Positions 2,370 through 17,043 of a stretch of 55,193 nucleotides of DNA are shown one piece after another. The position numbers were made by a program, and so were the translations under genes. Position 1 is the first letter of the stretch, and each line of letters starts with the position of its first letter. This DNA comes from a virus, in IMG/VR virus record IMGVR_UViG_3300031454_000005, positions 1 to 55,193 of that record. One strand, 5' to 3'. The notes under the pieces were generated by a model, which saw nothing but the letters and a program-made list of their open reading frames with translations, did not search any database and was not told the origin of the DNA.

Positions 2370-4940
2370 ATGACCATCGGACGCAAGCCGGCCGGGAATG
2401 ACGCGGGCTGGGGCATCGTCGGGGCCGGTGACTCCCGCGGGACGATCCTCGGCTCCCTGACGAGCAACGTCTGGATCACGCAGGCCGGGGCCCGCTGCGG
2501 CCGCTACGATGCCGGCAACGCGACCGTCGGCATCGCGATCTTCTATGCCACGTCCAGCGCCATCGGCGCCCTGGCCCAGACATTCCCGACCTTTACGGCC
2601 TCGACGCCGATGCTCGACGCGTATTCGGGCGCGAACTACACCGTCAACCCGACCGTGCCGATCCCGTGGTGGGCCAACACGATCATCGCCGAGGTGATCC
2701 GGGCGCAGACCAACCGGATCGCCCACGGTCAGGACAACTCGGGCGCGATCATGCACCAGCGGTTCAACATCGGGACCGCCTTCCCCACCCCGTACAACGC
2801 GACGCAGGTCGATCCCCAGGGCGTGTCGTCGATCTGGCTCGAGACCACCGCGAACCGGGCACCATCGACTCCGAGCAACCTCGCCCCGGCCCCCGACGCC
2901 ATCACCAACAGCACGACGCCGACGCTGGGCGCCGACTTCCGTGATCCGGACGAGACGGTCGGGGGGTACGCCATCGGCCAGGCGGATGCCATGTCCGCCT
3001 ACCAGTTCGAGGTCTGGAACGACGCCGGGAGCCGCCGCATCCAGTCCAGCGGCAAGCTGATCGCCACCGCCGCCCAGAAGTCCGCCCGGCGAGCGACCTG
3101 GGCGGTGCCGACGGCGCTGACCGCGGCGCGGTACGAGATGCGCTGCATCGTCTACGACTATTTCGGCACCCCGTCGCCGCAGGCCCGGTGGAAGGTCACG
3201 GTCAACACCGGCGGTGCCTTCATGAGCCCGCGGCTGTCGACCACCGTCGCGACCAATGTCACCAACCAGACCTCGCCGTCGTGGCAGGGCCAGTGGACGA
3301 GCTCAGCAGGAGTCAGTGCCTCGAGTATTCAGGCGAGGGTTCTCAACGAGGACGGCACGATCGCCCGGTCGCAGGGGAGTTTCAACTACTCCATCGCTCC
3401 CGGCTCAACCGGAATCTTCACATTTGGGGACTTCGGCTGGTCAGCGCTAACGTCGGGTAAGCGGTATCAAATCGAGTTCAAGGGCATGGACACGCTCGGC
3501 GGTGACTCGCCCTGGACCAGGACGCCGCTGTTCCTGGTGAATGGGCCACCCAACGTGGCGACCAACCGGAGTCCGGCGTCCGGCCAGAGCTTCACGACTC
3601 GCCCGACCCTGGCCGCGACCCTGACCGACCCCGACCATGCGTCGTCGGCCCTCACGCCGGACTTCCGCGTCCGGCCCGTCGGCAACACCGGCACGGGGAC
3701 GCTGGCCCCGGCAACCTACGCCGGCGGCAACGTCTGGCGGGCACCCACCGACGCCACGTCCATGCCCGCCCTCGGCAACTTTGAGTGGAGCGTCCAGATC
3801 ACGGACCCGTACGGGGCCGCTTCCGCCCGGTCGACGTGGTCGGCGGTCAACTGGGTCACGGCGGCGACCGTGACGATCACGGCCCCGGCGGCGGGCACGA
3901 TCACGACAGGCACCCCGACCGTCACGGCGACGGTCGACCGGGCCGTGACCAGCTACCGGGTGCGAATGCTCGAGACCGTCGCGGTCAACGGCTCGTACCC
4001 CGTCGCCTACGACAGCGACGTCATCGCCTCCGGCACGATCAGCCACACCATCCCGGCGGGCCGGCTGCGCAACGGTCGCGGCTACACCATCGAGCTGACC
4101 GTCGTGACGTCGGACGGTCTCACGACCGTCGTCACCCGCGTCGTGACGGTCTCGTACCCGGCCCAGCCAGCGCTCATGGGCGTGGTGGCCGCGCCGCAGG
4201 CGGCGCAGTTCGAGAGCTCGGCCGACTCGACATCCTGGAGCACCATCCGCGTCGCCTGGACGGCGCCGACCACGACGGCGATCCCGGACGCCGAGTTCGG
4301 CGGCTACCTGGTTCGTCGCAAGAGCGTGACGACGGGGGGCGAGGAGACGGTCGCGCTGCTCCGGACGCGCGGCGAGACCGTCTACGTCGACCGGACCCCC
4401 AGGTCCGGCGAGGCCTACAGCTACACGCCGGTCGCACTGCGGCTCGTCAACCTGCTCGACTGGGTGGAGTCGACGCCGGCCAGCGCCCAGGCCGTGGTCC
4501 GGTTGAAATACGCGACGCTGTCCGAGATCACGCCGAATGGCCTGAGCCTACCGCTCCGTGCCTGGCAGTCGCGAGGTGACGCGCCGGTCCGCGACATCGA
4601 TGTCGTCCCGACGCTGGGCCGCAAGCCGGTCACCTTCCAGGGTCTCATGGACTACGCGGTGATCTCCGGCCAGTTCACGATTACCGACCAGCCCGAGGTC
4701 GGCGCCGTGGTCGAGGACCAGCTGGCGGTCGCCCGCGAGCTGCGCAAACCCGACGAGGACGACCTCGGACGACCCGTTCCCAAGCAGCTCTGTTACCGGG
4801 ACCCGAAGCGGCGGGTGCTCTACGTGAGCGTCACGGACATCGGCGAGGAGGATGAGCACAGCGTCAGGCTGGCCCGGCTGAGCCTCACGCTGACCGAGAA
4901 CGCGACCCGCCTGTCCGGCGCGACGGGGGGAACGCCATGA
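2370..4940 (+). CDS. Minor tail protein in the distal-tail (Dit) position, with FN3/Ig-like repeat segments
   Basis: ATG lies 10 nt after the TMP stop; 856 aa. Several beta-rich segments of about 90 aa are introduced by Pro-rich linkers (APSTPSNLAP, GPPNVATNRSP, YPAQPALMG). Position is immediately after the TMP. The 2241 start in the ORF track lies inside the TMP gene. Confidence 0.7.
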   Translation: MTIGRKPAGNDAGWGIVGAGDSRGTILGSLTSNVWITQAGARCGRYDAGNATVGIAIFYATSSAIGALAQTFPTFTASTPMLDAYSGANYTVNPTVPIPWWANTIIAEVIRAQTNRIAHGQDNSGAIMHQRFNIGTAFPTPYNATQVDPQGVSSIWLETTANRAPSTPSNLAPAPDAITNSTTPTLGADFRDPDETVGGYAIGQADAMSAYQFEVWNDAGSRRIQSSGKLIATAAQKSARRATWAVPTALTAARYEMRCIVYDYFGTPSPQARWKVTVNTGGAFMSPRLSTTVATNVTNQTSPSWQGQWTSSAGVSASSIQARVLNEDGTIARSQGSFNYSIAPGSTGIFTFGDFGWSALTSGKRYQIEFKGMDTLGGDSPWTRTPLFLVNGPPNVATNRSPASGQSFTTRPTLAATLTDPDHASSALTPDFRVRPVGNTGTGTLAPATYAGGNVWRAPTDATSMPALGNFEWSVQITDPYGAASARSTWSAVNWVTAATVTITAPAAGTITTGTPTVTATVDRAVTSYRVRMLETVAVNGSYPVAYDSDVIASGTISHTIPAGRLRNGRGYTIELTVVTSDGLTTVVTRVVTVSYPAQPALMGVVAAPQAAQFESSADSTSWSTIRVAWTAPTTTAIPDAEFGGYLVRRKSVTTGGEETVALLRTRGETVYVDRTPRSGEAYSYTPVALRLVNLLDWVESTPASAQAVVRLKYATLSEITPNGLSLPLRAWQSRGDAPVRDIDVVPTLGRKPVTFQGLMDYAVISGQFTITDQPEVGAVVEDQLAVARELRKPDEDDLGRPVPKQLCYRDPKRRVLYVSVTDIGEEDEHSVRLARLSLTLTENATRLSGATGGTP

Positions 4941-6070
4941 CGATGCCCGTTTACCCCGCGCCCGAACTGATCAGTGGCGCCTACGCGATGCGGATGGAGC
5001 TGTGGCGGGCCGACCGCTACGGCCGGAAGCTGGAGCGCCTGAGCGACCGGCGACCGGTCTCCGGCTCGATCAGCTTCAACGAGGACAACGAGTTCAAGCG
5101 GCAGCTGTCGCTCACCATCGAGGATCCCGGCGCGCTGCGCCCGTTCCAGGACTTCGTCATCCCGACCATCGCCCTGGCGAAGCCCTTCGGTGCGGTCGAG
5201 GAGCGCAACCTCGGCCATTTCCTCATTACGCCGCCTGCCCAGTCGGTCGCGACCGGACGCCGCACCGGTCAAATCGAGGCCCGGGACAGCACCATCCTGC
5301 TGGCCCGCCGGCAGGTCGGGGACTTCACGCGGCCGGCCGGGGCGGATGTCGGCCGGGTCGCCTACGACCTGGCACTGACGGCCGGGTTCCTTCCCGAGCA
5401 GCTGGACATCCCCGTCGATACCGGCGTCGCGCTGGATCAGGACTACCGACCGTCACCGGGCGCGGTCGTCCTGGTCGAGGTGAACACGCTGCTCAACGCC
5501 GGCAACTGCTACACGGTCTGGGGGACGGGCAACGGGCTGGTGAAGTCGGCCCGCTACCAGGACCCGTCGCGGGGCGTGGCCAACCGACGGTACTCGACCG
5601 AGTCGGGCCTGGAGATCGTGCCGCCGATCACCGAGACGCCCAGCTGGGACAGCCTGCGCAACGCCGTCACGGTCCGCAACCTCCGGCCCGGCCAGCCGCC
5701 GATCTGGTGGACCGCCCGGATCACCAACCGGAACCACCCGCTCTATTTCGATCCGGACGACTCGAGCGTCGGCTTCGGCAAGGAGTGGAGCGGGCCGCCC
5801 GTCGACAACAGCCAGATCCCCGATGAGGCGGCGGCGAAGGCGCTGGCCGAGAGCCTGCTCGCCGCCGGCGCCAGCTACTACCGCAAGCTCGCGGTCACGA
5901 CCGTGGTGGACATCGACGCCGGCGGGCACGACCTCATCGAGCTCGACATCCGCAACGGACGCGAAGTGCTCTACGACGGTCTCTGGCGCCGCCGCACCTG
6001 GCGGATCGCGCTCCAGGGGATCAGCGCCACAACGGAATCAGATCTCTATCGCTCGGAGGACTGGCAATGA
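4937..6070 (+). CDS. Minor tail protein (tail tip/baseplate component)
   Basis: ATGA start/stop overlap with the upstream gene; 377 aa. Second gene after the TMP in a tail module. No specific motif recognised. Confidence 0.6.
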   Translation: MTMPVYPAPELISGAYAMRMELWRADRYGRKLERLSDRRPVSGSISFNEDNEFKRQLSLTIEDPGALRPFQDFVIPTIALAKPFGAVEERNLGHFLITPPAQSVATGRRTGQIEARDSTILLARRQVGDFTRPAGADVGRVAYDLALTAGFLPEQLDIPVDTGVALDQDYRPSPGAVVLVEVNTLLNAGNCYTVWGTGNGLVKSARYQDPSRGVANRRYSTESGLEIVPPITETPSWDSLRNAVTVRNLRPGQPPIWWTARITNRNHPLYFDPDDSSVGFGKEWSGPPVDNSQIPDEAAAKALAESLLAAGASYYRKLAVTTVVDIDAGGHDLIELDIRNGREVLYDGLWRRRTWRIALQGISATTESDLYRSEDWQ

Positions 6071-8616
6071 GCACTCCTGATCCTGGGGCAATCCGGGGAC
6101 TGGCGACCGGTCTGTGGGCCAGCCTGACGCGGGACGTCAAGGCGACCATCGACCGCCTGACGGACGTCCGCCGGGTGCAGGCGATCGAGGAAGACGGCCG
6201 GGTCACGATCGCGTCGACCAACCCCGACGCCCCGGCTCCCATGACGGTGTCGCGGTTGCGGGGTTCGACGTTCGCGCCGGGCGACGACGTGGTCACGATG
6301 CGGGTCGCCGGCTACGACGTCGCGATCGGAACGCTGGCGACGGCGGCTGACATGGTGGACAACGGTCAGGGCAATGGACCGGGTGGCACGCCCAACCAGA
6401 GCATCGATGTCTATGGACCGGGGCTGGGTCTGATCACTAGCAACCCGGCCGTAATGGATTTCAAGAACGGGTTCGCGCTCAGCGAACCCGTCCCGGACGT
6501 GGTCAGGCTCGACCTCGCCTACGGTGGGAACGGCACGGCGACGACCGTAGCGCGAAGCGATCACACCCACGTCGCGACATGGGATGTCCTGATCGTCATC
6601 CCCTACAGCATCCGCTATCAGGGCACCGTCCGGGCGATGACGACCAAGGAACGGTCGATGTGCGAGACCGTCGCCCGCCAGTTCTCCGGCCTCTATTCGA
6701 TGGCCTCCGGTGGCCTGATGGATGTGCGGGCGCGGGGCGTGTTCCGCGAAACGACCTGGGATCTGGATGCCGACCTCGCCGCGATCGGGAGCGGCTTGCC
6801 GGGGTTCGGCACGGGCGTCTGGATCGACGCCCAGCACGGCCAGCGGTTCCTCGATACCTACAACGGCCGGACCTACGACGCCCAGGTCATCATGGTCGGC
6901 AAGGCGCAGATCGACTCGACCGCCGACGGGCTCACCACGGGCGGCACGCCGGGCTGGTGTTTCCTCAACATCGGGGACGGCAACTACGACTTCTACGCCG
7001 GCCAGAACCGGCTTGCGGACGTGCTGGTCCATGAGATGAACCACCAGGTCGAATCGCGGATGCAGAACCTCGGCCTGGCGATCTCGCCGGTCGATGGATC
7101 GATACCCGGCACCACTGGCGCAGCGGCAATCAACAACGAGCCGCACCACAACTGGTTCTCCGGCTATATCGCCTGGTGGGACTACAACGACTTCTCCGGG
7201 CTGACCGACGACGGCCACGGCCCGACCGTCCACGCCGACACCCTGACGCTGCCCGACATCTACGTCGACCCGGACAACGGCTGGGGTGTGTTCACCACCG
7301 GAGGAACCGGCGACTACAACCAGAGCATCGACGTGTTCGGTACCGGCGTCGGCCAGATCACGTCCAACCTTGCCTATATCGACGTCAAGGACGGCCTGCT
7401 GGCGACGGAGCCGACCGTCGATGGTGTCCGGCTCGACGTGGACTTCACCGCGTCCGGCGGCTCCAACGGCACGACAACCAAGGTGGCGCGAGGCGATCAC
7501 ACACACGCGGCGGCGGACATCGCCTCTGGCATCATCGTCCCCGCCCGGCTCGGCATTGGCACCGCCTCGGCCACGACAACCCTGTATGGCGATGGGACGT
7601 GGAAGACGGCGCCGACCGGCGGAACGAGCACGACGTGGAACGGCGGCGATGTCACGGCGGCGACCCACTATCGCAACGTCGCGGTCGACGGGGACGACAG
7701 CGCGAGCGTCCGGCGCTGGGCGATGTATTCATCGGGGACGTTCGAGTCGTACGACGCCAACGGCTTTGTCCGCGCCAGCCTCGGGAACGGGTCGCTTTCG
7801 CTCTACGATTCGCTCGGCACGCAGACCGTCTACCTCCCCACGACGGGCAACCCGAGCGTTCCGCCCCGCTTCGCCGTGACCCCCACCGTGGGCGCGTCGG
7901 GCAGCGCGGTGAACGTCAGTCTCACGGGGCACACACACGTCAAGGGCGATGTCGGGCTCGGCAACGTCGATAACACGTCGGACGCGAGCAAGCCGGTCAG
8001 CACACCAACGCAGACCGCGCTCGACGCCAAGGCACCGCTCGCGTCGCCGGCCTTCACCGGAACGCCAACGGGTATCACCAAGGCGCACGTCGGGCTCGGC
8101 AACGTGGACAACACCGCCGACACAGCCAAGCCCATATCAACGGCGACGCAGGCCGCGCTCGACAGCAAGAGCAGCACCGCTCACACGGTCTCCCGGCCGA
8201 CCTCGAACTTCACCACGACGGCGACCGGCACCGTCGTCCCCACGGCCACCCTCGGTATCACGGTGGGGGCCAACGAGGTCTGGGAGTTCGTCATCGACCT
8301 GTTCACTGGATGCAGCGGGACCGGCGGGACCAAATGGGGCATCTACTGCACCCAGGCGGCGACGCTGCGCGGCAGCGCGATCGGCATGGCGGCGATCCCG
8401 ACCGCTGTCACCTCGGCATCCCTGACCACGAACGCCGGGCTGAGCGGCGTCGCGTTCAACACCGCCGCTCGCCAGGACGGGTGGGTCCGCATCGCCGGGA
8501 TCATCGCCAACGGGGCAACGGCGGGAACCTTCTACCCGGTCTGGGGAGCTGGCGTCGCGGGCGAAACCAGCACCCTGTACACCAACAGCCTGATCGTCGC
8601 CCATCGCATTGGGTAG
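6067..8616 (+). CDS. Tail fibre / receptor-binding protein with an embedded HExxH metallopeptidase-like segment
   Basis: ATGA overlap with the upstream gene; 849 aa. Contains two copies of the phage-fibre motif GLGNVDNT.D..KP.S...Q.AL..K (7951-8031 and 8089-8169). Contains two copies of NQSIDV.G.G.G.ITSN...G(G)NGT.TT.AR.DHTH (6394-6570 and 7318-7506). HEMNH is at 7030-7044. Confidence 0.8.
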   Translation: MSTPDPGAIRGLATGLWASLTRDVKATIDRLTDVRRVQAIEEDGRVTIASTNPDAPAPMTVSRLRGSTFAPGDDVVTMRVAGYDVAIGTLATAADMVDNGQGNGPGGTPNQSIDVYGPGLGLITSNPAVMDFKNGFALSEPVPDVVRLDLAYGGNGTATTVARSDHTHVATWDVLIVIPYSIRYQGTVRAMTTKERSMCETVARQFSGLYSMASGGLMDVRARGVFRETTWDLDADLAAIGSGLPGFGTGVWIDAQHGQRFLDTYNGRTYDAQVIMVGKAQIDSTADGLTTGGTPGWCFLNIGDGNYDFYAGQNRLADVLVHEMNHQVESRMQNLGLAISPVDGSIPGTTGAAAINNEPHHNWFSGYIAWWDYNDFSGLTDDGHGPTVHADTLTLPDIYVDPDNGWGVFTTGGTGDYNQSIDVFGTGVGQITSNLAYIDVKDGLLATEPTVDGVRLDVDFTASGGSNGTTTKVARGDHTHAAADIASGIIVPARLGIGTASATTTLYGDGTWKTAPTGGTSTTWNGGDVTAATHYRNVAVDGDDSASVRRWAMYSSGTFESYDANGFVRASLGNGSLSLYDSLGTQTVYLPTTGNPSVPPRFAVTPTVGASGSAVNVSLTGHTHVKGDVGLGNVDNTSDASKPVSTPTQTALDAKAPLASPAFTGTPTGITKAHVGLGNVDNTADTAKPISTATQAALDSKSSTAHTVSRPTSNFTTTATGTVVPTATLGITVGANEVWEFVIDLFTGCSGTGGTKWGIYCTQAATLRGSAIGMAAIPTAVTSASLTTNAGLSGVAFNTAARQDGWVRIAGIIANGATAGTFYPVWGAGVAGETSTLYTNSLIVAHRIG

Positions 8617-9368: not shown

Positions 9369-9565
9369 ACATCGTCGTTCGGTTGATTGATTGGGTAGAA
9401 GGGATCGGCGCTAAGCGGTACGACAGTCAGGCCGATGCCGACTGGCTCAAACGAGATGAGGACAAGCGGGACGCGGAGGCGTTGCTGGAACGGGTCCGGC
9501 AGCGGGCGGCGAGCCCGATCGAGCGCGCTGTATTGGGACAGCCACCCCAACGGAGGCCGGAATGA
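9365..9565 (+). CDS. Hypothetical small protein
   Basis: ATGA overlap with the upstream stop; 66 aa, charged. In frame with track ORF 8717..9565. Confidence 0.45.
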   Translation: MNIVVRLIDWVEGIGAKRYDSQADADWLKRDEDKRDAEALLERVRQRAASPIERAVLGQPPQRRPE

Positions 9566-10236
9566 TAACCACGCTGCGACACCCATTGCTCTGGATGATC
9601 GGGAGCGTCCTGCTGGCGTTCGGCGGGTTGTACATCCTGACCGACTTCCAGACCGTTCACTGGCTCGACCCAGTACTGCTGATCGTGATCGTGGTCGCCT
9701 CGGTCGCCGCCGCGCTGTCGTTGCTAATCCAGACGAAGGACTGGACGGCCCTGAGCGCGGGCCTGCTGTCGTTCTTCTCGGGAAACGCAGTCCTGTGGGT
9801 TTACGCGCTGGTGGGGCCTCGCGATGAGACGGGCAGCCTGTACCCGGATGCCGTCGAGTTCCTGCCCGTCATTGCGCTGTTGGTAGTCGGGGCGATCTTC
9901 TTCGTCTACGGGATGATCCGGGGCGGCTGGGCCTCGTTCCGATTCCGGGCCGAGTCCGATCGGCAGGGCCGCGAGGACATCGCCCGCATCGGTCAGCAAC
10001 TGACCACGATCAGCCGGGAGGCAAGGGACGCGGTGCGGGAGGCGGCGACCGAAGCCGTGGAGGCACGGAGCGCGGCGCGGGATGCGGCGACCGAAGCCGT
10101 GGAGGCATCGGACGAGCGGACGAGGATCATGCTGGAAAACGCGGCCAAGCAGGAGACGCTACTGGAAGTGAAGAACATCGTCCGCCCTAAAGAGCCCGAT
10201 GACCACGACCACGAAGACGACGGGTCGCTGACCTGA
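9562..10236 (+). CDS. Polytopic membrane protein (about 4 TM) with a repeat-containing helical tail
   Basis: ATGA overlap with the upstream gene. Four hydrophobic stretches in the first 120 aa. The C-terminus carries a repeated REAATEAVEA / RDAATEAVEA unit, from a 24-nt perfect repeat at about 10040 and 10085. Confidence 0.65.
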   Translation: MITTLRHPLLWMIGSVLLAFGGLYILTDFQTVHWLDPVLLIVIVVASVAAALSLLIQTKDWTALSAGLLSFFSGNAVLWVYALVGPRDETGSLYPDAVEFLPVIALLVVGAIFFVYGMIRGGWASFRFRAESDRQGREDIARIGQQLTTISREARDAVREAATEAVEARSAARDAATEAVEASDERTRIMLENAAKQETLLEVKNIVRPKEPDDHDHEDDGSLT

Positions 10237-10253
10237 TCAGCGATTTGACGGCT

Positions 10254-10296
10254 CCGGCGGCCTCAGCCGTTATGGCTGAACGGCTGAGGCCGCCGG
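10254..10296. terminator. Perfect 18-bp stem hairpin (factor-independent terminator candidate, no U-tract)
   Basis: CCGGCGGCCTCAGCCGTT / 7-nt loop / AACGGCTGAGGCCGCCGG, starting 18 nt after the stop at 10236. Confidence 0.6.
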
Positions 10297-10347
10297 GGCA
10301 GGCAACCGAACTCACCAACCAACCAACCATCCAGGAGGATCACCGAC

Positions 10348-10572
10348 ATGCCGAAGCCCGATCACGCCGGACACGGACGCGAGTCCGCCCCCGGCCAGAA
10401 CAAGCCCCGTACGTTCGTCAACGACGCCGGTGAGCAGACCACCGGCACCATGAACACGTTTCATGAAACGCTGAAAGATCAGGGCTACCGTCCGGTCGAG
10501 GATGCCGCCGAGACCGAGCCCACCGACGATCCGGCCGTGAGCGATCCCGGGACACCCGTCCCGGCAATCTAA
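10348..10572 (+). CDS. Hypothetical small acidic protein
   Basis: ATG is preceded by CCAGGAGGATCACCGAC (AGGAGG); 74 aa. Confidence 0.55.
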   Translation: MPKPDHAGHGRESAPGQNKPRTFVNDAGEQTTGTMNTFHETLKDQGYRPVEDAAETEPTDDPAVSDPGTPVPAI

Positions 10573-10638
10573 CCGTCGAGCCTGCCCCGGCTCGCCTGCA
10601 TCCGAGGATCGACCAATGAACATCACGGATTTCAGGCT

Positions 10639-11133
10639 CTATGCCGTCCAACATCGCCTCGCCCGGATGTTGAGAACAGTCGTCGGATGCACTCCATATC
10701 GCTTCGCCGTGACCGTATACGGGTCCAACGACGAACGAATGGCATCAACATCTACGGCCGTCAAGATCGTGTTCTTGCCACGGCGCATGTTCTCTGCTTG
10801 TGTGACCGGTTCCAAGTGTTCCGGGTTGATGCACGACGGATTGCGGCAGAGGTGGTCAAGCACGATCCCCTTTGGGATAGGTCCGTGAACAATTTCATAG
10901 GCATCGCGATGGGCGTACAGTCGACGGCCGTCTCTGGTCGTCAGCCCGTACCCAAGCTTCGTCACAGCCCCTTGCCAGACGTGGCACCCCGTATCCGGGT
11001 CAACAACCCATCGAACGCTCGATTTCCTGCGGTGATGTCCGATCTTCCACTTCGCGAACGGCTGCCCCTTACCCTTTCGCCGCCGCTCTACCCGTTCCCC
11101 GCATCCGCAGGCACAGTATCGAACCTCGTCCAT
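10639..11133 (-). CDS. HNH homing endonuclease (HNH_3-like)
   Basis: Motifs CACGCG...HHRR, then GCHVWQG, then LDHLCRNPSCINPEHLEPVTQAENMRRG. Antisense to the flanking late genes. Confidence 0.8.
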   Translation of the reverse strand: MDEVRYCACGCGERVERRRKGKGQPFAKWKIGHHRRKSSVRWVVDPDTGCHVWQGAVTKLGYGLTTRDGRRLYAHRDAYEIVHGPIPKGIVLDHLCRNPSCINPEHLEPVTQAENMRRGKNTILTAVDVDAIRSSLDPYTVTAKRYGVHPTTVLNIRARRCWTA

Positions 11134-11177
11134 CGGCCACGTTACCTCCGGTACGATTATACATTACGGGGGCGCTC

Positions 11178-11573
11178 ATGAACGTGCGGGACTTCAGACT
11201 TTTCGAGTACCACGGGATCGTCACCCGGATCAGTGACGGCGACACGTTCTGGGTCATGACCGACGAGGGAATGCGCGACTTTGCCGAAGCGCAGATCCGC
11301 ATCCTGTTCGCCGACGCGCCCGAGCTCCGGGGGCTCACCCGCGTCGCAGGAGAGGCAGCGAAGGTGTGGCTTACCGATAGGTTGCTGGGCAAGCCAGTCT
11401 GGTGGTTCAGCAAAAAGGACAGCAAGAGCTTCGACCGTTGGCTGGGCGATGTCTGGTACGCGCCGAACGAGTACGGCGAGCTTCGGCATCTCTCCGAGGA
11501 CATGGTTGCCGCCGGGATGGCCGTCCCGACCGATGACCAAGGTCGCCACATCACGACAGGAGAGACGGCATGA
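11178..11573 (+). CDS. Staphylococcal-nuclease (SNase/thermonuclease)-like protein
   Basis: SDGDTFWV ... IRILFADAPE ... FDRWLGDVW ... MVAAGMAV follows the DGDT / RL.GIDAPE / D.YGR / G.A pattern of the SNase fold. 131 aa. Confidence 0.65.
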   Translation: MNVRDFRLFEYHGIVTRISDGDTFWVMTDEGMRDFAEAQIRILFADAPELRGLTRVAGEAAKVWLTDRLLGKPVWWFSKKDSKSFDRWLGDVWYAPNEYGELRHLSEDMVAAGMAVPTDDQGRHITTGETA

Positions 11574-11812
11574 CCCCAGGACTCGGACGAGTAGCTCCAA
11601 AAACGTGGGAGCATGTCGACAAGTACCCCATGCGCCGTCTGGCCGCTGTACCGGAGGTCTGCGAGCGCACCATCGGTCTCAGCAGCGCGTGGCGTCGCAT
11701 TTACGATCAGGGGCCGACCTCCATGTGCGTCGGGTTCTCGTCGTCCATCGAGCAGTCGCTGTCCGAGCGACGGACGTTCGACCCACGCTGGCTCTACGCC
11801 CGGTGCAAGGCT
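11570..11812 (+). pseudogene. 5' fragment (81 codons) of a papain-like Cys-peptidase endolysin gene, paralogous to codons 1-82 of 12496..13227
   Basis: A by-eye alignment is about two-thirds identical (YPMRRLAA, VCERT, YDQG.TSMCVG.SSS, SLSER.TFDP.WLY..CK). Similarity ends at 11812, the nt before the 3' end of the antisense HNH ORF (11813). The rest of track ORF 11570..12499 is antisense shadow. Confidence 0.6.
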
Positions 11813-12397
11813 TTATTCGGGAGGCGTCGCCCGGGGACGACCCAACCAGTGCGCTTTCAAGTGCGCGGAACGCTCCATTGGGACAAGATGGTCAGGATTC
11901 ACGCAGCTTGGATTGCTGCATGTGTGATGGAGGTCGTACCCCTCAGGAATCGAACAAACCAGTTCGGCGTACAGAACCCGATGGGCCAACTCGCCTCCTC
12001 GCTTCCCATACCCGTACGAATTGCGGCACCTTTGCCAGACCCAACAGCCAGATTCGGAGTCAACCACATAATCCGGACCATCCGGGGCGCGATGGTGGGA
12101 GCGGATATAGCGTTGCGGCTGGCCCTTCACATGCCCAAGCTTCGTACGGGTGTAACCCGCAACTGGTGTTGGTCGCCCACAACCACATGCGCACAGAACT
12201 GTAGTGTTCTGCGGCAATGGTTGCTCACGTCGCCGTTCCTCGACCACCCGCTCTCGACAAGCTCGACAAGCTCGACAATAACTGTAACGACTTGCCCGGC
12301 CGGGCCTTTTGCCGGTGCGCTGGGTGAACGTATCAAACGCATCTGTCGGGAGATCGCGGTCACATTTGCGGCAATGACGGGTATGATTAGTCTGCAT
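11813..12397 (-). CDS. HNH homing endonuclease (HNH_3-like), paralogue of 10639..11133
   Basis: Motifs CACGCG..., then GCWVWQ, then LHHTCSNPSCVNPDHLVPMERSAHLKAH. The N-terminus has a CRKC/CRACRAC Zn-ribbon-like region that includes a 9-nt tandem repeat. Confidence 0.8.
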   Translation of the reverse strand: MQTNHTRHCRKCDRDLPTDAFDTFTQRTGKRPGRASRYSYCRACRACRERVVEERRREQPLPQNTTVLCACGCGRPTPVAGYTRTKLGHVKGQPQRYIRSHHRAPDGPDYVVDSESGCWVWQRCRNSYGYGKRGGELAHRVLYAELVCSIPEGYDLHHTCSNPSCVNPDHLVPMERSAHLKAHWLGRPRATPPE

Positions 12398-12495
12398 TTC
12401 AGTCCCTCCAGACTGATTGCCGTGCCCCGGGCTGTTAGCGCAGCGCCGGGGTTTGTTGTGCCCAAATTATACCGCGACCAGAAGGAGGTGACGGC

Positions 12496-13227
12496 ATGAC
12501 TGTTCGTCCATTAGGGAGACTAGTACCGCCAGACGATAACCACATTCGTAGTTATCCGATGCGTCGGTTAGCTGCTCCGCCAGACGTTTGTGAGCGGACG
12601 CTGTCGCTCAGCAGTCGGCACCGCAGATTCTACGATCAGGGCGCTACCTCGATGTGCGTCGGCTATTCGTCATCGCAGGAGCGATCCCTGTCCGAACGCA
12701 TCACCTTTGACCCCATCTGGTTGTACCGGCAGTGCAAGAATCGCGACAGCATTCCCAACGAGGACGGCACGTTCCTCCGGGTCGCCTACGACGTGTTGCG
12801 GGAGCAGGGCGCCCGCAAGGCCGGGGCGGCCGGACCGGACCCGCGGTACGGCGTTGAGCGCAACGAGTGGGCCACATCGGTCGACGACATCCGCCACGCC
12901 ATCGCCGAGGGCCGGGCGGTGGTGATGGGCACGAACTGGTACCGCCGGATGTTCACCCCCGAACGGCGCAACGGCCTGTACTGGCTGCCGGACGGCGGCG
13001 GCGACCTCGGGCGGCTGTCCGGTGGCCACGCCTACATCCTCAACCGGGTCAGCGACCGGTACGAGGCGTTCGCCACTCCCAACTCATGGGGGCCGAGTGA
13101 CCGCGACTGGCACCCGGACGAATCCGGCTGGCCGGTCTCAATGATTCCGTTCAGCCTCATCGAGCGGCTGCTCGCAGAAGACGGGGAATGCGTCCTCGTC
13201 GTCGACCGAAAGGAGACGCAGACATGA
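12496..13227 (+). CDS. Endolysin, papain-like cysteine peptidase domain protein
   Basis: GGAGG lies 7 nt upstream of the ATG. Candidate Cys nucleophile in QGATSMCVGYS and His in SGGHAYIL; NSWG motif present. Adjacent to the amidase and holin. Confidence 0.7.
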   Translation: MTVRPLGRLVPPDDNHIRSYPMRRLAAPPDVCERTLSLSSRHRRFYDQGATSMCVGYSSSQERSLSERITFDPIWLYRQCKNRDSIPNEDGTFLRVAYDVLREQGARKAGAAGPDPRYGVERNEWATSVDDIRHAIAEGRAVVMGTNWYRRMFTPERRNGLYWLPDGGGDLGRLSGGHAYILNRVSDRYEAFATPNSWGPSDRDWHPDESGWPVSMIPFSLIERLLAEDGECVLVVDRKETQT

Positions 13228-14168
13228 CCACGCTCACCTTCGGCAACGTTCCGGCACCGGGCATGGACATCATGGACATCCCGTCCAGCGTCAATACGGC
13301 CTGGGACGATTTGGGCCAGAGAGTCCCGAAATTCGTCGTTCTTCACCGGATGTACGGGACCCTGACCGGGACTGACGCCTATTTCCGCACCGACGCCCGG
13401 ACGAAGGCCCTCACGGACTACGGCATGGACCAGAGCACCGGCCGGATCATCCGGTGGAACGACCCGTGGGGGCGGCGGGCGGCGTGGGCCAGCGGGCCCT
13501 ACCAGTCGCCCAGCGGGGACGGCCCCGCCATCGTGGCGAAGCTCGGGATTGCGGCGATCAACCGGGATGGCGTCTCCATCGAGATCGCGGGGAGTGGCGG
13601 CGATCCCGTCAGCGCCACGGCTTACGGGGAGCTTGTCGCGCTCGTCGCTTGGCACGCCGACCGGGCGAAAGTGCCGCACACCCAGTTCCCGATCAACCCG
13701 GCGACCGGCCTGACATTCGTCATGTGGCACGGGGAGTTCAACGGCCAGAAGCGCGACACCTGCCCCGGCTCCGTCGTCGCGGCGTTCACCGACCGGCTCA
13801 TCACCGATGTCACCGCATTGCTTAAGCATCACCAGGAGGCGGTTACCGTGGCGGTCGCTGCGGCGCCGGTCCCGTCGCCCCCCGTGGCATCAGTAGAGCC
13901 GCCCACCGCACTCGCGCTCCCGGCCGGTGTCACGCTGGCGATGATGGGGGACTGGTTCGGGGCCGTCGCCCCGAGCGGAGCACAGTCCTCCACGTTCCGG
14001 TTCGATCCCGCGGGACCGCTGACCAAGCTGTGGCTGGCGCGAGGCAAGCGACTGGGCGTGTGGCCGCAACTGCGTGAAGTGACGCAGACCGGCAATGTCC
14101 GCGTCTTCAGTTTTGAGGATGGCTATCGAGTGATCGCTGGGCCGGATGGTCTGAAGGAGGCCGCCTGA
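13224..14168 (+). CDS. Endolysin, N-acetylmuramoyl-L-alanine amidase (Amidase_2/PGRP-like) with a C-terminal putative wall-binding region
   Basis: ATGA overlap with the peptidase gene. Motifs FVVLHRMYG, GVSIEIAG and HGEF...CPG. A Pro/Ala linker (AAAPVPSPPVASVEPP) is followed by a domain of about 90 aa. Confidence 0.7.
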   Translation: MTTLTFGNVPAPGMDIMDIPSSVNTAWDDLGQRVPKFVVLHRMYGTLTGTDAYFRTDARTKALTDYGMDQSTGRIIRWNDPWGRRAAWASGPYQSPSGDGPAIVAKLGIAAINRDGVSIEIAGSGGDPVSATAYGELVALVAWHADRAKVPHTQFPINPATGLTFVMWHGEFNGQKRDTCPGSVVAAFTDRLITDVTALLKHHQEAVTVAVAAAPVPSPPVASVEPPTALALPAGVTLAMMGDWFGAVAPSGAQSSTFRFDPAGPLTKLWLARGKRLGVWPQLREVTQTGNVRVFSFEDGYRVIAGPDGLKEAA

Positions 14169-14231
14169 CGAGATGAAAGGGAAACGCCGATATCTTTCAG
14201 GAACCACTATCCAGATGAAAGGGTTGTCACC

Positions 14232-14510
14232 ATGACCGACACCGTTGACGTCGCCGTACCCGTCACTGACCCCGGCAAGCAGCAGCTCACGACCGCACGC
14301 GACTTCTGGCAGCGGATCGCCAGAACCATGTTGCAATTAGTCGCCGGTGGGGCATTGGCCGCGCTGACCAATCAGCTCGCCTCGGACATCCCGCCGGCCT
14401 ATTCCGCGTACCTGGTCCTCGGCTACACCCTGCTCGTCACGGTGGCCCAAAACGCCGTGGAGAACCGATTTCCGCAGGCGACCATTCTTAAGCGGCCAGC
14501 CGTCGTCTGA
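14232..14510 (+). CDS. Holin (two-TM class)
   Basis: 92 aa with two hydrophobic helices (MLQLVAGGALAALTNQLA and YSAYLVLGYTLLVTVAQNAV). Directly downstream of the endolysin genes. Confidence 0.7.
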   Translation: MTDTVDVAVPVTDPGKQQLTTARDFWQRIARTMLQLVAGGALAALTNQLASDIPPAYSAYLVLGYTLLVTVAQNAVENRFPQATILKRPAVV

Positions 14511-14527
14511 CCGGGCAGCTTCGACGC

Positions 14528-14570
14528 AACAGCACGGCCCCGGCGATCAACTCGCCAGGGCCGTTCTGTT
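14528..14570. terminator. Bidirectional terminator hairpin between convergent genes
   Basis: AACAGCACGGCCCCGGCGA / tcaac / TCGCCAGGGCCGTTCTGTT. 19-bp stem with 2 mismatches. Lies between the holin stop (14510) and the stop of 14575..15024(-). Confidence 0.65.
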
Positions 14571-14574
14571 GTGC

Positions 14575-15024
14575 CTATCCCGCGATCGGCGCGACCTCAT
14601 CCGGGTCGAGGTCGCGTTGCCGGGCCAGTTCACGGAGGGCCAGCCAGACAGAGCCGGGAATCGGGTTCCGGCCGGCCTCCCACCGGGCGACGGCGTCACG
14701 GGTGAGGCCGAGGGCGGCGGCGAGCTCGGTCTGGGTGAGGCCGAGGAGCGCACGGGCGCGGCGGATGCGGTCGGCCGGGTCCCGCCGGTCGAGCGGAATG
14801 CCCGCGGCGAACGCGTCGACGACGGCCTGGAGGTCGGGAAACGTCGCGCTGATCGGCTCTCCATCGAACGTCGTGTGTGACCAGGCGTCGATCAGCCCGT
14901 CGTCATTCCGCTCCCAAAAGCCGAGCGTGTGCTCGTCGCCCCGGAGGATGCTGCCCTCGCGGGTGTTCAGGTTGGATTCGGTCCGGGCACGGATACGGCC
15001 GTTGCTGCCGTGGTACGGGTTCAT
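14575..15024 (-). CDS. XRE-family HTH protein with an unknown ~90-aa N-terminal domain
   Basis: The C-terminal IRRARALLGLTQTELAAALGLTRDAVARWEAGRNPIPG is a typical Cro/C1-type HTH. 149 aa. Confidence 0.7.
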   Translation of the reverse strand: MNPYHGSNGRIRARTESNLNTREGSILRGDEHTLGFWERNDDGLIDAWSHTTFDGEPISATFPDLQAVVDAFAAGIPLDRRDPADRIRRARALLGLTQTELAAALGLTRDAVARWEAGRNPIPGSVWLALRELARQRDLDPDEVAPIAG

Positions 15025-15102
15025 GGTATCGTCCTCTCGTCATTGTCCGTGACAGCCAGCGGCCCGGCGGGGAACCATCCCGCCGGGCCGCTGCGTTGCC
15101 GG

Positions 15103-15459
15103 TTACTCCTCCCAGCGCGGCTCGACGGGGATGTTGCCGACCGCATCGAAGATCGCTCGGGCGGTCAGGCCGTCCGGCTGCGCCTGGAAGCGGCGACCGA
15201 TGACCCGGTCGATCTCGGCATCGACATCGACCAGATCGAGCTGCGCGTCATCGGCGAGGCGGCGGGCGTGGGCGAGGATGCCCTGGCTGTGATCGACGGC
15301 GACGGCGACGGAGCCGGTCACCGGCTCGTTGGCGTATCGCTCGCTGCGGGCGATCTGGTTGATCGTCGCGGCGGCGTGCTGGACCATGCCGCGGAGGACT
15401 TCGCGGATGTCCTCGACCTGATCGGTGGTGAGGGTGAGGGCGGTGGTCGTGTCGGTCAT
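15103..15459 (-). CDS. Hypothetical helical protein, first gene of a two-gene cassette
   Basis: ATG at 15459 with GGGAG 10 nt upstream; 118 aa. Strong promoter upstream (see 15504..15557). Confidence 0.6.
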   Translation of the reverse strand: MTDTTTALTLTTDQVEDIREVLRGMVQHAAATINQIARSERYANEPVTGSVAVAVDHSQGILAHARRLADDAQLDLVDVDAEIDRVIGRRFQAQPDGLTARAIFDAVGNIPVEPRWEE

Positions 15460-15503
15460 TTGTCCGTGACTCCCTTTGTGTGATCCGTCACCCCGGAGCG
15501 CCT

Positions 15504-15557
15504 TTGGCTCCGTTCGGTGTGTAGATATATTCTACATGAGGGAGGGGATGGCGTCAA
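15504..15557. promoter_or_regulatory. Two overlapping divergent sigma-70-type promoters centred on a perfect palindrome
   Basis: Minus strand: TTGACG (15557-15552), 17 nt, TAGAAT (15534-15529). Plus strand: TTGGCT (15504-15509), 16 nt, TATATT (15526-15531). The palindrome TGTAGA-tatat-TCTACA (15520-15536) covers both -10 boxes. Confidence 0.6.
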
Positions 15558-15762
15558 CAGGTTCTAGGCCGATTCCGGCACCACTATCCGGGCAATCGTT
15601 GTCCGAGGGTGTCGGTCCGTGCGGTGGAACCCGACGGTGATACTGATGGTGAGCCTTCGCCAATTCGTGTGGTATTATTCGCCCCGCACTGCCCCGGACC
15701 ACCCGGAAGAATCGGCATTTCGGCCTATCCCACGCAATCCCCCCATCTCCACCATGTCGAGC

Positions 15763-15797
15763 ACAGGTCCCGGTTCGCCGGGGCCTGTCGCTGTTTT
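15763..15797 (+). terminator. Intrinsic terminator (11-bp stem, UUCG loop, U-tract on the + strand)
   Basis: ACAGGTCCCGG ttcg CCGGGGCCTGT followed by cgcTGTTTTc. Lies 59 nt beyond the int stop, so it could also act as a U-less hairpin terminator for int on the - strand. Confidence 0.6.
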
Positions 15798-15855
15798 CGG
15801 GCGGGCGATGGTGAAATCGATGGTGAGGAAGGACCGATTTTCGGCATGACAAGAC

Positions 15856-17043
15856 TCATGTTGTCGTACTTCCCGCCGCCCCGAACAGCCGATCACCGAG
15901 GTCGTCGGCGGCGCGGCGGTGGTCGTCCCGCGAGGTGTGGCTGTAGAGATCGAGGGTGATCTGGACGGAGCGGTGGCCCAGCCGCTCGGAGACCAGCTTG
16001 ACGTTCGTCCCGGCCCGAACTTCCAGGGTGGCATTCGTGTGCCTGAGCTGGTGTAACGTGATCGGGGTGACGCCGGTGGTCTCGATCAGACCGGCGTGAA
16101 CGCGCTGCCAGGTCGTGCGGGCGAGGAAGCGCCCGTCGCCGCGGTCGAAGACCATGCCGTCGTCGTGCCAGACGGCCGAGGCCAGGCGGCGGCGCTTCTG
16201 CTCGGTCGACCAGGCACGCAGGGCCGCGACGGCGGACGCGGGGATGGCGTTCTCCCGTTCCCGGCCGGTCTTGGTGGACTCGCCCATCACGACATGGCCG
16301 GCCAGGTCCTTCGTGAGAGAGCGCTGGACCGTGATGATGCCGGCATCGAGATCGACGTCGGCCCACTGGATGGCGCAGAGCTCACCCGGCCGCATCCCGG
16401 TCGAGAGCGCGACCCGGTAGAAGGCGTCCCACATGGGCTCGCCGGCCAGCGTCACGATGACCCGCTGGACCTCGGCGACGGACCAGGTCGGGATCTTCTT
16501 CTTCCGGGCGATGGGGTAGCGCAGCCCGACGGCCGGGTTGACCGGGATGATGCCGAGCCGGGCGGCCTCGGCCAGCGCGGCGGTCAGGACGCGGCCGCTG
16601 TTCTCGATCGTGTTGGGGCCGTACTTGCGCCGCCGGGCGTCGTCGATCCAGTGCTGGATCCGCCCCGTCGTCAGACCCTCGATCCGGAGCGTGCCGAGGT
16701 CGGGGTAGATCAGGCGCTCGGCCCGTTGGCGGTAGGCGGCGTGGGTGGCCGGCTTCCAGCGGCCCTCGCCGCGGTCGAGGTAGTCGCCGACGGCGTCCTT
16801 CACCGTCATGTTGGAGGGCGGGACGTAGCGGCCGTGGCGCTTCTTACGAGCGACGTCGCGCAAATGGTCCTCGGCGGCGTCCTGGTCGGGAAAGGACTTC
16901 GAGCGCCAGATCGTATGCCCGGTGTCCTGCGGCTCCGGCCAGCGGGCCCGGACCCGTTCGGTCCCATCGGTCAGCTGGTAGCTGAGCACGTAGCCGTCCC
17001 CGTAGCGGACGCCCTCGCGCCGGCGTGGTTCTCGACGTGCCAT
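15856..17043 (-). CDS. int: Tyrosine integrase (site-specific recombinase, phage integrase family)
   Basis: 395 aa. C-terminal HQLRHTNATL ... LGHRSVQITLDLYSH matches the R-H-R-Y catalytic region. The N-terminus has a SAM-like/arm-binding style region. Confidence 0.9.
   Translation of the reverse strand: MARREPRRREGVRYGDGYVLSYQLTDGTERVRARWPEPQDTGHTIWRSKSFPDQDAAEDHLRDVARKKRHGRYVPPSNMTVKDAVGDYLDRGEGRWKPATHAAYRQRAERLIYPDLGTLRIEGLTTGRIQHWIDDARRRKYGPNTIENSGRVLTAALAEAARLGIIPVNPAVGLRYPIARKKKIPTWSVAEVQRVIVTLAGEPMWDAFYRVALSTGMRPGELCAIQWADVDLDAGIITVQRSLTKDLAGHVVMGESTKTGRERENAIPASAVAALRAWSTEQKRRRLASAVWHDDGMVFDRGDGRFLARTTWQRVHAGLIETTGVTPITLHQLRHTNATLEVRAGTNVKLVSERLGHRSVQITLDLYSHTSRDDHRRAADDLGDRLFGAAGSTTT

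Follow-up and report, generated by a model that had tools for sequence, protein, structure and literature searches.

The lysis operon of a temperate phage from a metagenome appears to have been entered twice by a homing-endonuclease gene, and at both places the interrupted gene is present at full length. The phage is IMG/VR virus record IMGVR_UViG_3300031454_000005, and we refer to the whole stretch that we analysed (55,193 nucleotides, positions 1 to 55,193 of that record) as the window. Two HNH genes, HNH1 and HNH2, lie antisense to the operon, and both have the same layout: a 5' stub of an operon gene with its ribosome-binding site, then the antisense HNH gene, then a short control region, and then the full gene. 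We think that this island probably consists of free-standing homing-endonuclease cassettes whose insertion into coding sequence was healed by a diverged replacement 5' end. The structure is known from this one metagenomic phage genome. An earlier note on the same DNA had proposed an HNH cassette within a peptidase gene, with a diverged second 5' end that restores the full gene and a stub left at the ancestral position, and the core of that proposal is supported; all of the elements named in the note lie at the coordinates it gave. The earlier reading was limited to HNH2 and the peptidase gene, where it is borne out, but it overlooked the same architecture at HNH1.

The features discussed below are, from left to right (aa, amino acids; nt, nucleotides; SD, Shine-Dalgarno sequence; UTR, untranslated region):

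10604..10638, plus strand: stub 1, a further copy of the SNase-like start, with ribosome-binding site GAGGA at 10604-10608 and 8 codons from 10616
10639..11133, minus strand: HNH1, 164 aa, free-standing HNH_3 protein (PF13392, E 2e-15; phrog_826, 6e-30)
11134..11177, minus strand: HNH1 signals, with a predicted -10 box TATAAT (11161 to 11156) and SD GGAGG (11149 to 11145)
11178..11573, plus strand: SNase-like gene, 131 aa, intact (PF00565, 1.5e-4; phrog_452, 8e-17)
11570..11812, plus strand: stub 2, at the ancestral position, with codons 1-81 of a papain-like peptidase gene, cut just after the invariant Lys81 codon
11813..12397, minus strand: HNH2, 194 aa, free-standing HNH_3 protein (PF13392, E 5e-8; phrog_826, 3e-18)
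12398..12495, minus strand: divergent control region, with the HNH2 SD GGAGGG (12409 to 12404), a 5'-UTR hairpin (12424-12451) and a predicted -10 box TATAAT (12471 to 12466)
12472-12495, plus strand: the other side of the divergent control region, a vestige of the SNase-like 3' end with a new ribosome-binding site GGAGG and ATGA
12496..13227, plus strand: papain-like (Cys54/His178) peptidase gene of the lysis cassette, intact, 243 aa, 68 homologues
12631..12800, plus strand: putative exchange tract, 95% identical to positions 8136-8305 of the closest relative (L001), with zero differences at 12650-12750 (101 nt)
13224..14168, plus strand: Amidase_2 endolysin gene (PF01510, E 3e-9), ATGA-coupled to the peptidase stop codon

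The duplicated start of the peptidase gene

We aligned stub 2 (11570-11812) with the beginning of the intact peptidase gene (12496-12741). The proteins are identical at 52 of 81 positions (64%), and the nucleotide sequences are about 60% identical over 246 columns, with the longest runs common to both copies being about 11 nt. The alignment is significant, and the earlier description of the fragment as about two-thirds identical to the start of the peptidase holds. For this match, local tblastn gave E 4e-38. In a search of 5.8 billion proteins, the peptidase query matched a 309-aa open reading frame (ORF) that begins with stub 2 at E 5.6e-24, and the match was confined to its first 81 codons. 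Because of these two E values, we consider the duplication to be far beyond chance.

The homology ends at 11809 (TGCAAG, with the invariant Lys81 codon) and is followed by GCT and then by TTA at 11813-11815, which is the complement of the HNH2 stop codon. The similarity had been said to stop at the nucleotide next to the 3' end of HNH2; the place is right but the exact nucleotide is not, as 3 nt separate its end from the HNH2 stop codon. At the opposite edge, the duplication begins about 24 nt upstream of the ATG, where CGCGACCAGAAGGAGGTGACGGCATGA at 12472-12498 matches CACGACAGGAGAGACGGCATGA at the true end of the SNase-like gene. The earlier note had the duplicated segment run from 12496 onward, which accounts for the 5' end of the peptidase gene but not for this upstream vestige. 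The vestige (12472-12495) implies that the intact copy came from a syntenic junction of SNase-like and peptidase genes.

The downstream peptidase copy is full length: its residues 1-243 align with relatives, and stub 2 overlaps it completely. Thus, this locus is not a split gene, in which two non-overlapping fragments would compose the protein.

Stub 2 is well preserved. Its ribosome-binding site (GGAGAG) and the ATGA overlap of its start codon with the SNase-like stop codon are present, as in L001 and as the earlier note had described, and it keeps 27 of 28 family-conserved columns, with no frameshift. It also retains the catalytic-Cys motif TSMCVG that had been pointed out, including the family-invariant Cys54, and it lacks the catalytic His. 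The two copies are similarly close to outgroups (0.58 for stub 2 and 0.57 for the intact copy). Because the stub keeps its conserved columns and is equally near the outgroups, most of the divergence seems to have arisen in separate lineages in which both genes were functional. Stub 2, which had been called a pseudogene, shows no pseudogene decay.

We therefore considered where the two copies came from. If a tandem duplication had arisen in place, by slippage or at a staggered break, and an HNH gene had landed between the copies, then direct repeats would flank the gene, as they do at both cassettes, and the copies would have diverged later within this lineage. But by the time a stub without function had diverged by 36% in protein and by about 40% in nucleotides, its frame should be broken and conserved residues should be gone, which is not the case for stub 2. 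Also, L001 has both types of sequence (at 90-100% identity) within one gene, which implies that both circulate as alleles. Duplication in place is highly improbable, and we take the two copies to be different alleles rather than a duplication that diverged where it stands.

The same layout at HNH1

Stub 1 reads ATGAACATCACGGATTTCAGGCT at 10616, which encodes MNITDFRL, and it directly adjoins the HNH1 stop codon (10639-10641). It matches the true start of the SNase-like gene at 11178 (MNVRDFRL) at 17 of 23 nt, and it is the single best non-self match to this 23-mer on either strand of the whole 55-kb window. Local tblastn aligned 6 of 9 amino acids (E 0.01). Both stubs end 0-3 nt from an HNH stop codon. 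So a duplicated gene end that flanks an endonuclease ORF and leaves one complete gene, which is a feature of the mobile ORFs (mORFs) of fungal mitochondria, occurs twice in this island, although it is the 5' end that is duplicated here and not the 3' end.

Two strain variants that were falsely joined during assembly could also give repeated gene starts. The window is a metagenomic contig, and the HNH2 junctions are found only here and in one ENA assembly (L086, 100% identical over 9496-16227) that perhaps derives from the same reads. However, the two peptidase copies, at only about 60% nucleotide identity, are too different for an assembler to confuse, and a Logan contig repeats the HNH1 junctions and the junction of the SNase-like gene with stub 2 exactly. 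(This contig, L085, has 1,237 bp, is 100% identical to 10449-11685, and takes in stub 1, HNH1, and the SNase-like gene as well as the start of stub 2.) Furthermore, all of the ORFs and signals are coherent. An assembly artefact is extremely improbable.

The HNH genes and their signals

By their sequences, HNH1 and HNH2 are ordinary HNH_3 enzymes. Both PF13392 matches exceed the gathering score, and together with the matches to PHROG HNH families they indicate the conserved His, Asn, and Cys of the catalytic domain. HNH2 also has a Cys-rich N-terminal extension. The two proteins are 40% identical (E 2e-21) and are the only members of the HNH_3 family in the window, which confirms the earlier description of two paralogous antisense HNH genes on either side of the SNase-like gene and the peptidase fragment. 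Both ORFs are intact and are antisense to the lysis operon. Their G+C content at third codon positions (GC3) is 0.67 for HNH1 and 0.56 for HNH2, as compared to 0.84-0.91 for the structural and lysis genes and 0.73 for the helicase gene; the lower GC3 relative to the structural and lysis genes marks the HNH genes as foreign. Homologues of HNH1 are present in about 600 GenBank phage records, and those that are annotated are mostly called HNH or homing endonuclease. The best homologues of HNH2 are P0069 (51%) and L009 (62%, over the C-terminal 77 aa); in the PDB, no sequence match for HNH2 was found.

The HNH genes are not embedded in an intron or an intein: they are antisense to the host genes, and no Rfam family, and hence no Rfam intron, matched within 10000-13500 at E up to 1. 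Instead they have predicted signals of their own. The hexamer TATAAT occurs just twice on both strands of the window (11156-11161 and 12466-12471), and each occurrence precedes an HNH start codon on the minus strand, by 22 nt for HNH1 and by 68 nt for HNH2. A scan with the sigma-70 consensus did not call these promoters, since no -35 element fits the consensus. The -35 elements of actinobacterial promoters are often weak. Each cassette would thus be a compact antisense transcription unit, with a predicted -10 box, a predicted SD, and the ORF. On the plus strand, the HNH1 signal region (11134..11177) is the ribosome-binding region of the SNase-like gene.

The control region of HNH2 also contains a strong hairpin at 12424-12460 on the plus strand, with 12 pairs and one bulge followed by UUUGUUGUG; HNH2 is on one side of it and the ribosome-binding site for the intact peptidase is on the other. 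The hairpin resembles an intrinsic terminator, which would keep transcription from upstream out of the peptidase and amidase genes; read on the minus strand, it is part of the 5' UTR of HNH2.

As for existing gene calls, those at ENA list the 309-aa shadow ORF (11570-12499) and have no minus-strand gene over HNH1 or HNH2, while the gene calls for the Logan contig do contain HNH1.

Relatives without HNH genes

The earlier note had suggested a comparison with relatives that lack the HNH genes, and we found four, each with a single peptidase gene (238-246 aa) that is coupled to or overlaps the SNase-like gene. The closest is L001 (identical to L008), an IMG/VR viral contig. As its sequence also occurs inside a metagenome contig of 620 kb, L001 is probably a prophage. 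It has no HNH gene: an ATGA couples the SNase-like gene to a single peptidase gene, and the amidase gene and a 92-aa ORF come next. The window's peptidase is 76% identical to that of L001, and the SNase-like proteins are 55% identical. In L058, L088, and L089, the SNase-like gene overlaps the peptidase start, again with no HNH gene, and the peptidases are 63-64% identical to the window's. Thus, the HNH genes are present or absent at the same locus among related genomes.

The duplication is also visible by blastn: L001 7726-8243 matches window 11295-11809, and L001 7995-10122 matches window 12490-14564. Because both matches cover L001 7995-8243, this 249-nt segment is present twice in the window. 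Among GenBank phages we found no relative of the window at the DNA level, and at the protein level just a 26% match to the peptidase. A short N-terminal peptidase fragment in L082 was rejected, as it lies on an unrelated low-GC contig.

Other endonuclease genes are found near the lysis genes of these relatives. L009 contains the closest homologue of HNH2 that we found (1576-1825), which is antisense and tail to tail after a peptidase gene whose product is 65% identical to the window's; the stop codons of the two genes overlap, and the contig ends inside the HNH2-like gene. In L059, an HNH_5 gene lies just downstream of the peptidase gene. L001 encodes a 997-aa lysin (3387-6380) with NlpC/P60 and Amidase_2 domains that is interrupted near its N-terminus by an intein with a LAGLIDADG domain. 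Because of these three cases, the lysis module looks like a recurrent target of endonuclease genes.

Sequence exchange around the insertion point

Across the region, the background identity between the window and L001 is about 65-70%. L001 8046-8167 is 90% identical to stub 2 (11612-11733), and the still more similar tract in the intact copy, at 12631..12800, covers the position that is homologous to the HNH2 insertion point (12738/12739). We typed L001 at the sites where the two window copies differ. Codons 2-13 are of the intact type, codons 14-52 are of the stub type, and codons 53-101 match the intact copy, with 29 of 29 informative sites at 12663-12740 being of the intact type. The last switch of type lies within the shared ATGTGCGTCGG of the catalytic-Cys motif (Fisher p 2e-10). 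L001 thus follows the stub in places and the intact copy elsewhere. The divergence of the copies predates the duplication. In the 16.7 kb that we compared with L001, only two other stretches, both short, reach about 90% identity, one of 51 nt (14019-14069) and one of 99 nt where the 92-aa ORF begins, and nothing else comes near 100%. An exact-pattern scan of IMG/VR for the 100% tract found the L001 contig only.

The 95-100% tract around the insertion point points to a recent exchange, and in this one relative it is consistent with co-conversion. The earlier note had called the island a fossil of an HNH cassette. We agree about the cassette origin, but "fossil" is too weak a description because the HNH ORFs are intact, with their own predicted -10 boxes and SD sequences, and because a relative has tracts of 95-100% identity. 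There are several possible readings of the L001 mosaic. It could be a scar that was left when L001 gained the composite and then lost the HNH gene by repeat recombination at the microhomology in the Cys motif; it could reflect break repair that copied the continuous intact copy, with a template switch; or it could result from recombination that is unrelated to the nuclease. The unequal identities (80%, 90%, and 100%) fit several events near the insertion point better than one.

Proposed origin of the island

The genes of the lysis cassette are tightly coupled (ATGA), with no intergenic space. Because such an operon offers no neutral intergenic site, an endonuclease cassette in a gene would survive only if the full gene is restored. 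We propose that HNH1 would have inserted after codon 8 of the SNase-like gene and HNH2 into the peptidase gene, behind its invariant Lys81 codon. Beyond each cassette, a diverged second 5' end with its own ribosome-binding site would have made the downstream gene full length, with the original start left behind as a stub. The composites would have formed when related phages infected the same cell and a double-strand break was repaired between them: the broken gene of the recipient would be restored from a related phage by homology on one side and by an illegitimate join on the other, with at least one side of the insertion joined illegitimately (one-sided homing). Because the repeats differ by 34-40%, recombination between them would then be hindered from removing the cassette. 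Gene conversion near the insertion point may still pass all or part of the composite (stub, HNH gene, and 5' copy) between this phage and its HNH-free relatives.

Which copy was resident is a separate question. The earlier note had the cassette truncate the resident copy and bring its own; the two-copy structure stands, but the direction is favoured by position alone. Position favours a resident stub and an imported intact 5' end because the stub keeps its full SNase-like context, with a junction that is 26/27 identical to that of L001. In the mirror image, the intact peptidase copy would be the resident, the stub, perhaps along with the SNase-like gene, would have come with HNH2 from a donor phage, and the illegitimate join would be at the vestige of the SNase-like 3' end. 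L001 codons 2-13 and 53-101, which match the intact copy and not the stub, would suit this scenario, as would the N-terminus of the stub, which resembles that of the more remote relative P0005. In addition, alignments of more distant relatives with the stub begin right at its 5' end, and the GC3 of the copies does not differ significantly. However, the stub is joined seamlessly to a complete SNase-like gene, whereas the intact copy has only about 24 nt of SNase-like sequence, which abuts the HNH2 -10 box, and a short vestige in that place is what a piece that moved with the cassette would be expected to look like. Overall, we consider the mirror image to be unlikely. We also considered GC3 as evidence that the intact 5' end is foreign and rejected it, as all of the copies are AT-rich in their first codons and the difference is not significant.

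Several observations weigh against the origin by cassette insertion that we propose. No close relative has either cassette at the same site, and the best homologues of HNH2 (51-62%) are located elsewhere. When we tested eight other HNH_3 loci for the stub architecture, none showed it convincingly. (A self-tblastx comparison across other HNH loci had too much noise to be useful.) The plus-strand hairpin that resembles a terminator, ahead of the intact peptidase gene, is not accounted for by this origin. The GC3 of the intact 5' end is 0.52 and that of the stub is 0.69 (p ~ 0.1), so GC3 does not settle which copy was resident. Finally, gain and loss are deduced from one relative, and in that relative the tracts differ (90% vs. 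100%) and codons 2-13 are of the intact type at only 80% identity, which a single simple event does not fit.

The 309-aa open reading frame

Stub 2 has no stop codon of its own and reads on for 309 codons through the antisense strand of HNH2, to a TGA that overlaps the ATG of the peptidase gene. It had been suggested that the fragment could be translated as a short peptide, but any product would instead be the 309-aa read-through. Beyond the first 81 codons, we found no homologue of this ORF but itself among the 5.8 billion proteins. The earlier note had allowed that the ORF might prove to be a conserved single protein in related genomes; it is found in this contig only.

The frame is the codon-aligned antisense frame of HNH2, and neither HNH1 nor HNH2 contains TTA, CTA, or TCA codons. 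We rejected the open frame as a sign of selection: it is the antisense of a gene that is free of those codons, and the joint chance of the open frame is about 0.1.

The stub or the whole ORF could nevertheless be a functional gene, such as a catalytically dead N-terminal fragment that modulates lysis, or an ORF whose translation carries ribosomes across the insert to the ATGA of the intact gene. The intact ribosome-binding site and ATGA coupling of the stub and its conserved residues would agree with a function, and so would a frame that stays open to the peptidase ATG and passes through the terminator-like hairpin. But the lack of homologues past the first 81 codons, the ease with which an open frame arises opposite HNH2, and the absent catalytic His argue against a function. 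Also, the frame of stub 1 meets a stop codon at 10888. We think that a function for the stub or the ORF, in either form, is very unlikely.

Genome setting

The window is a complete or nearly complete genome of a temperate siphovirus-type phage, with 66% G+C. Genes for the tape-measure and minor tail proteins are followed by the lysis cassette, which contains the island, then by the repressor and integrase genes, and further on by genes for the helicase, portal, and head morphogenesis. Within the island the order is HNH1 (minus strand), SNase-like gene (plus), stub 2 (plus), HNH2 (minus), and peptidase gene (plus), followed by the Amidase_2 gene and the 92-aa ORF. The peptidase gene is indeed intact at 12496, as the earlier note had it, but the amidase gene should be taken to begin at 13224.

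In the peptidase family, Cys54 is invariant and His178 is nearly so, and the family profile matches the cysteine protease 3ois (E 6e-8). From its gene context, we infer a role in lysis, with the peptidase as a papain-like component of the phage endolysin cassette. The 92-aa ORF after the amidase gene may be a holin. Its first 33 codons or so (window 14222-14320, L001 9780-9878) are 90% identical between the two phages, as compared to about 70% around them, and would be a second patch that is locally conserved or exchanged between the window phage and L001.

Upstream of the island, a 224-aa ORF contains a 42-nt periodic repeat encoding EAATEAVEARSAARDAATEAVEAS (window 9994-10160); its similarity to the L001 ORF in the same position is not detectable. 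A 74-aa ORF at 10348-10572 has no family match. The same position in L058 and L059 is taken by Acb2/Tad1-type genes: L058 4358-4654 and L059 1347-1556 encode hairpin domains of this anti-defence family and adjoin SNase-like or peptidase genes. Elsewhere in the window, 25399-27429 encodes a ResIII/DEAD-type helicase with an N-terminal HNH domain (PF01844) that is unrelated to the HNH_3 cassettes.

Implications

The island gives a nucleotide-resolution view of how selfish nuclease genes can become established in an operon without intergenic space while the phage stays viable. It is a clear and doubled example, with a relative that records exchange. Apparently, both stages of an endonuclease life cycle have been kept: the window has occupied sites with stubs, and the mosaic in L001 may be what conversion, or the loss of a cassette, left behind.

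Four broader ideas follow, which we offer together and tentatively, as the set of them is on balance doubtful. First, such cassettes might be a third general way, besides introns and inteins, to live inside an essential and translationally coupled coding sequence. Second, the mobile unit would be an antisense HNH gene with its own promoter and with a diverged replacement for the 5' end and ribosome-binding site of its target gene. Third, the divergence would both guard against deletion mediated by the repeats and make the carrier immune to cleavage. Fourth, a prophage might produce the nuclease, which might then attack related phages that superinfect; expression from a prophage is possible because the -10 boxes are of a host type and the phage is temperate.

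The arrangement provides a signature for searches, in which an antisense endonuclease gene stands between a 5' stub and the full gene. By surveying for this signature, one would see how commonly phages use the strategy of fungal mitochondria. The island is also a warning for annotation, as automated calls can hide it behind a chimeric ORF, as at ENA.

Comparison with known systems

In the papers that we searched, we found no report from phages of a duplicated 5' end of the target gene beside an endonuclease gene, which is not proof of absence. Free-standing endonucleases of the T4 and T7 type (Seg, Mob, and I-HmuI-like HNH proteins; PMC2988022) belong to the same superfamily, are sporadic among relatives, and cause gene conversion of their flanks, with illegitimate joins when homology is one-sided. 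Section 5 of that paper, citing Parker et al. (1999), describes one-sided homing with illegitimate double-strand-break repair as established in T4. However, those genes normally lie between genes or split a gene into two working halves. The split genes nrdA/mobE of Aeh1 and 39/60 mobA of T4 differ from the island in that the window's downstream copies are full length.

The "HEG islands" (HEG is short for homing endonuclease gene) of ICP1-like phages (PMC10448857) resemble this island in that endonuclease genes are clustered and adjoin mosaic recombination boundaries, which can be compared with the tract in L001. Unlike the window's island, they carry cargo genes between the endonuclease genes, and no partial duplication of a target gene is described for them. 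Like homing endonucleases that are borne by inteins or introns, the window's cassettes live inside essential coding sequence without destroying it; in contrast to these, they have no splicing element and the HNH gene is antisense, and the repair would be made in the DNA itself, through duplication.

The closest known arrangement is the hybrid gene formed by an mORF in fungal mitochondria, as in atp6 of Allomyces macrogynus and atp6, atp9, cox2, and nad3 of Glomus (PMC3630166). There too, an endonuclease ORF lies in a gene along with a foreign copy of the interrupted end, and the native end, pushed aside, persists as a duplicate. In both systems the copies have diverged strongly, with 63.5% nucleotide identity between the native and foreign copies of Glomus atp6 (PMC3630166) and about 60% in the window. 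In fungal mitochondria, however, it is the 3' end that is replaced, whereas in the window it would be the 5' end along with the ribosome-binding site. The fungal endonucleases are co-oriented with the gene, often in frame, and of the LAGLIDADG or GIY-YIG type, while those in the window are antisense HNH_3 proteins. Finally, the window's cassettes have their own predicted promoters and reside in a temperate phage rather than in a mitochondrion.

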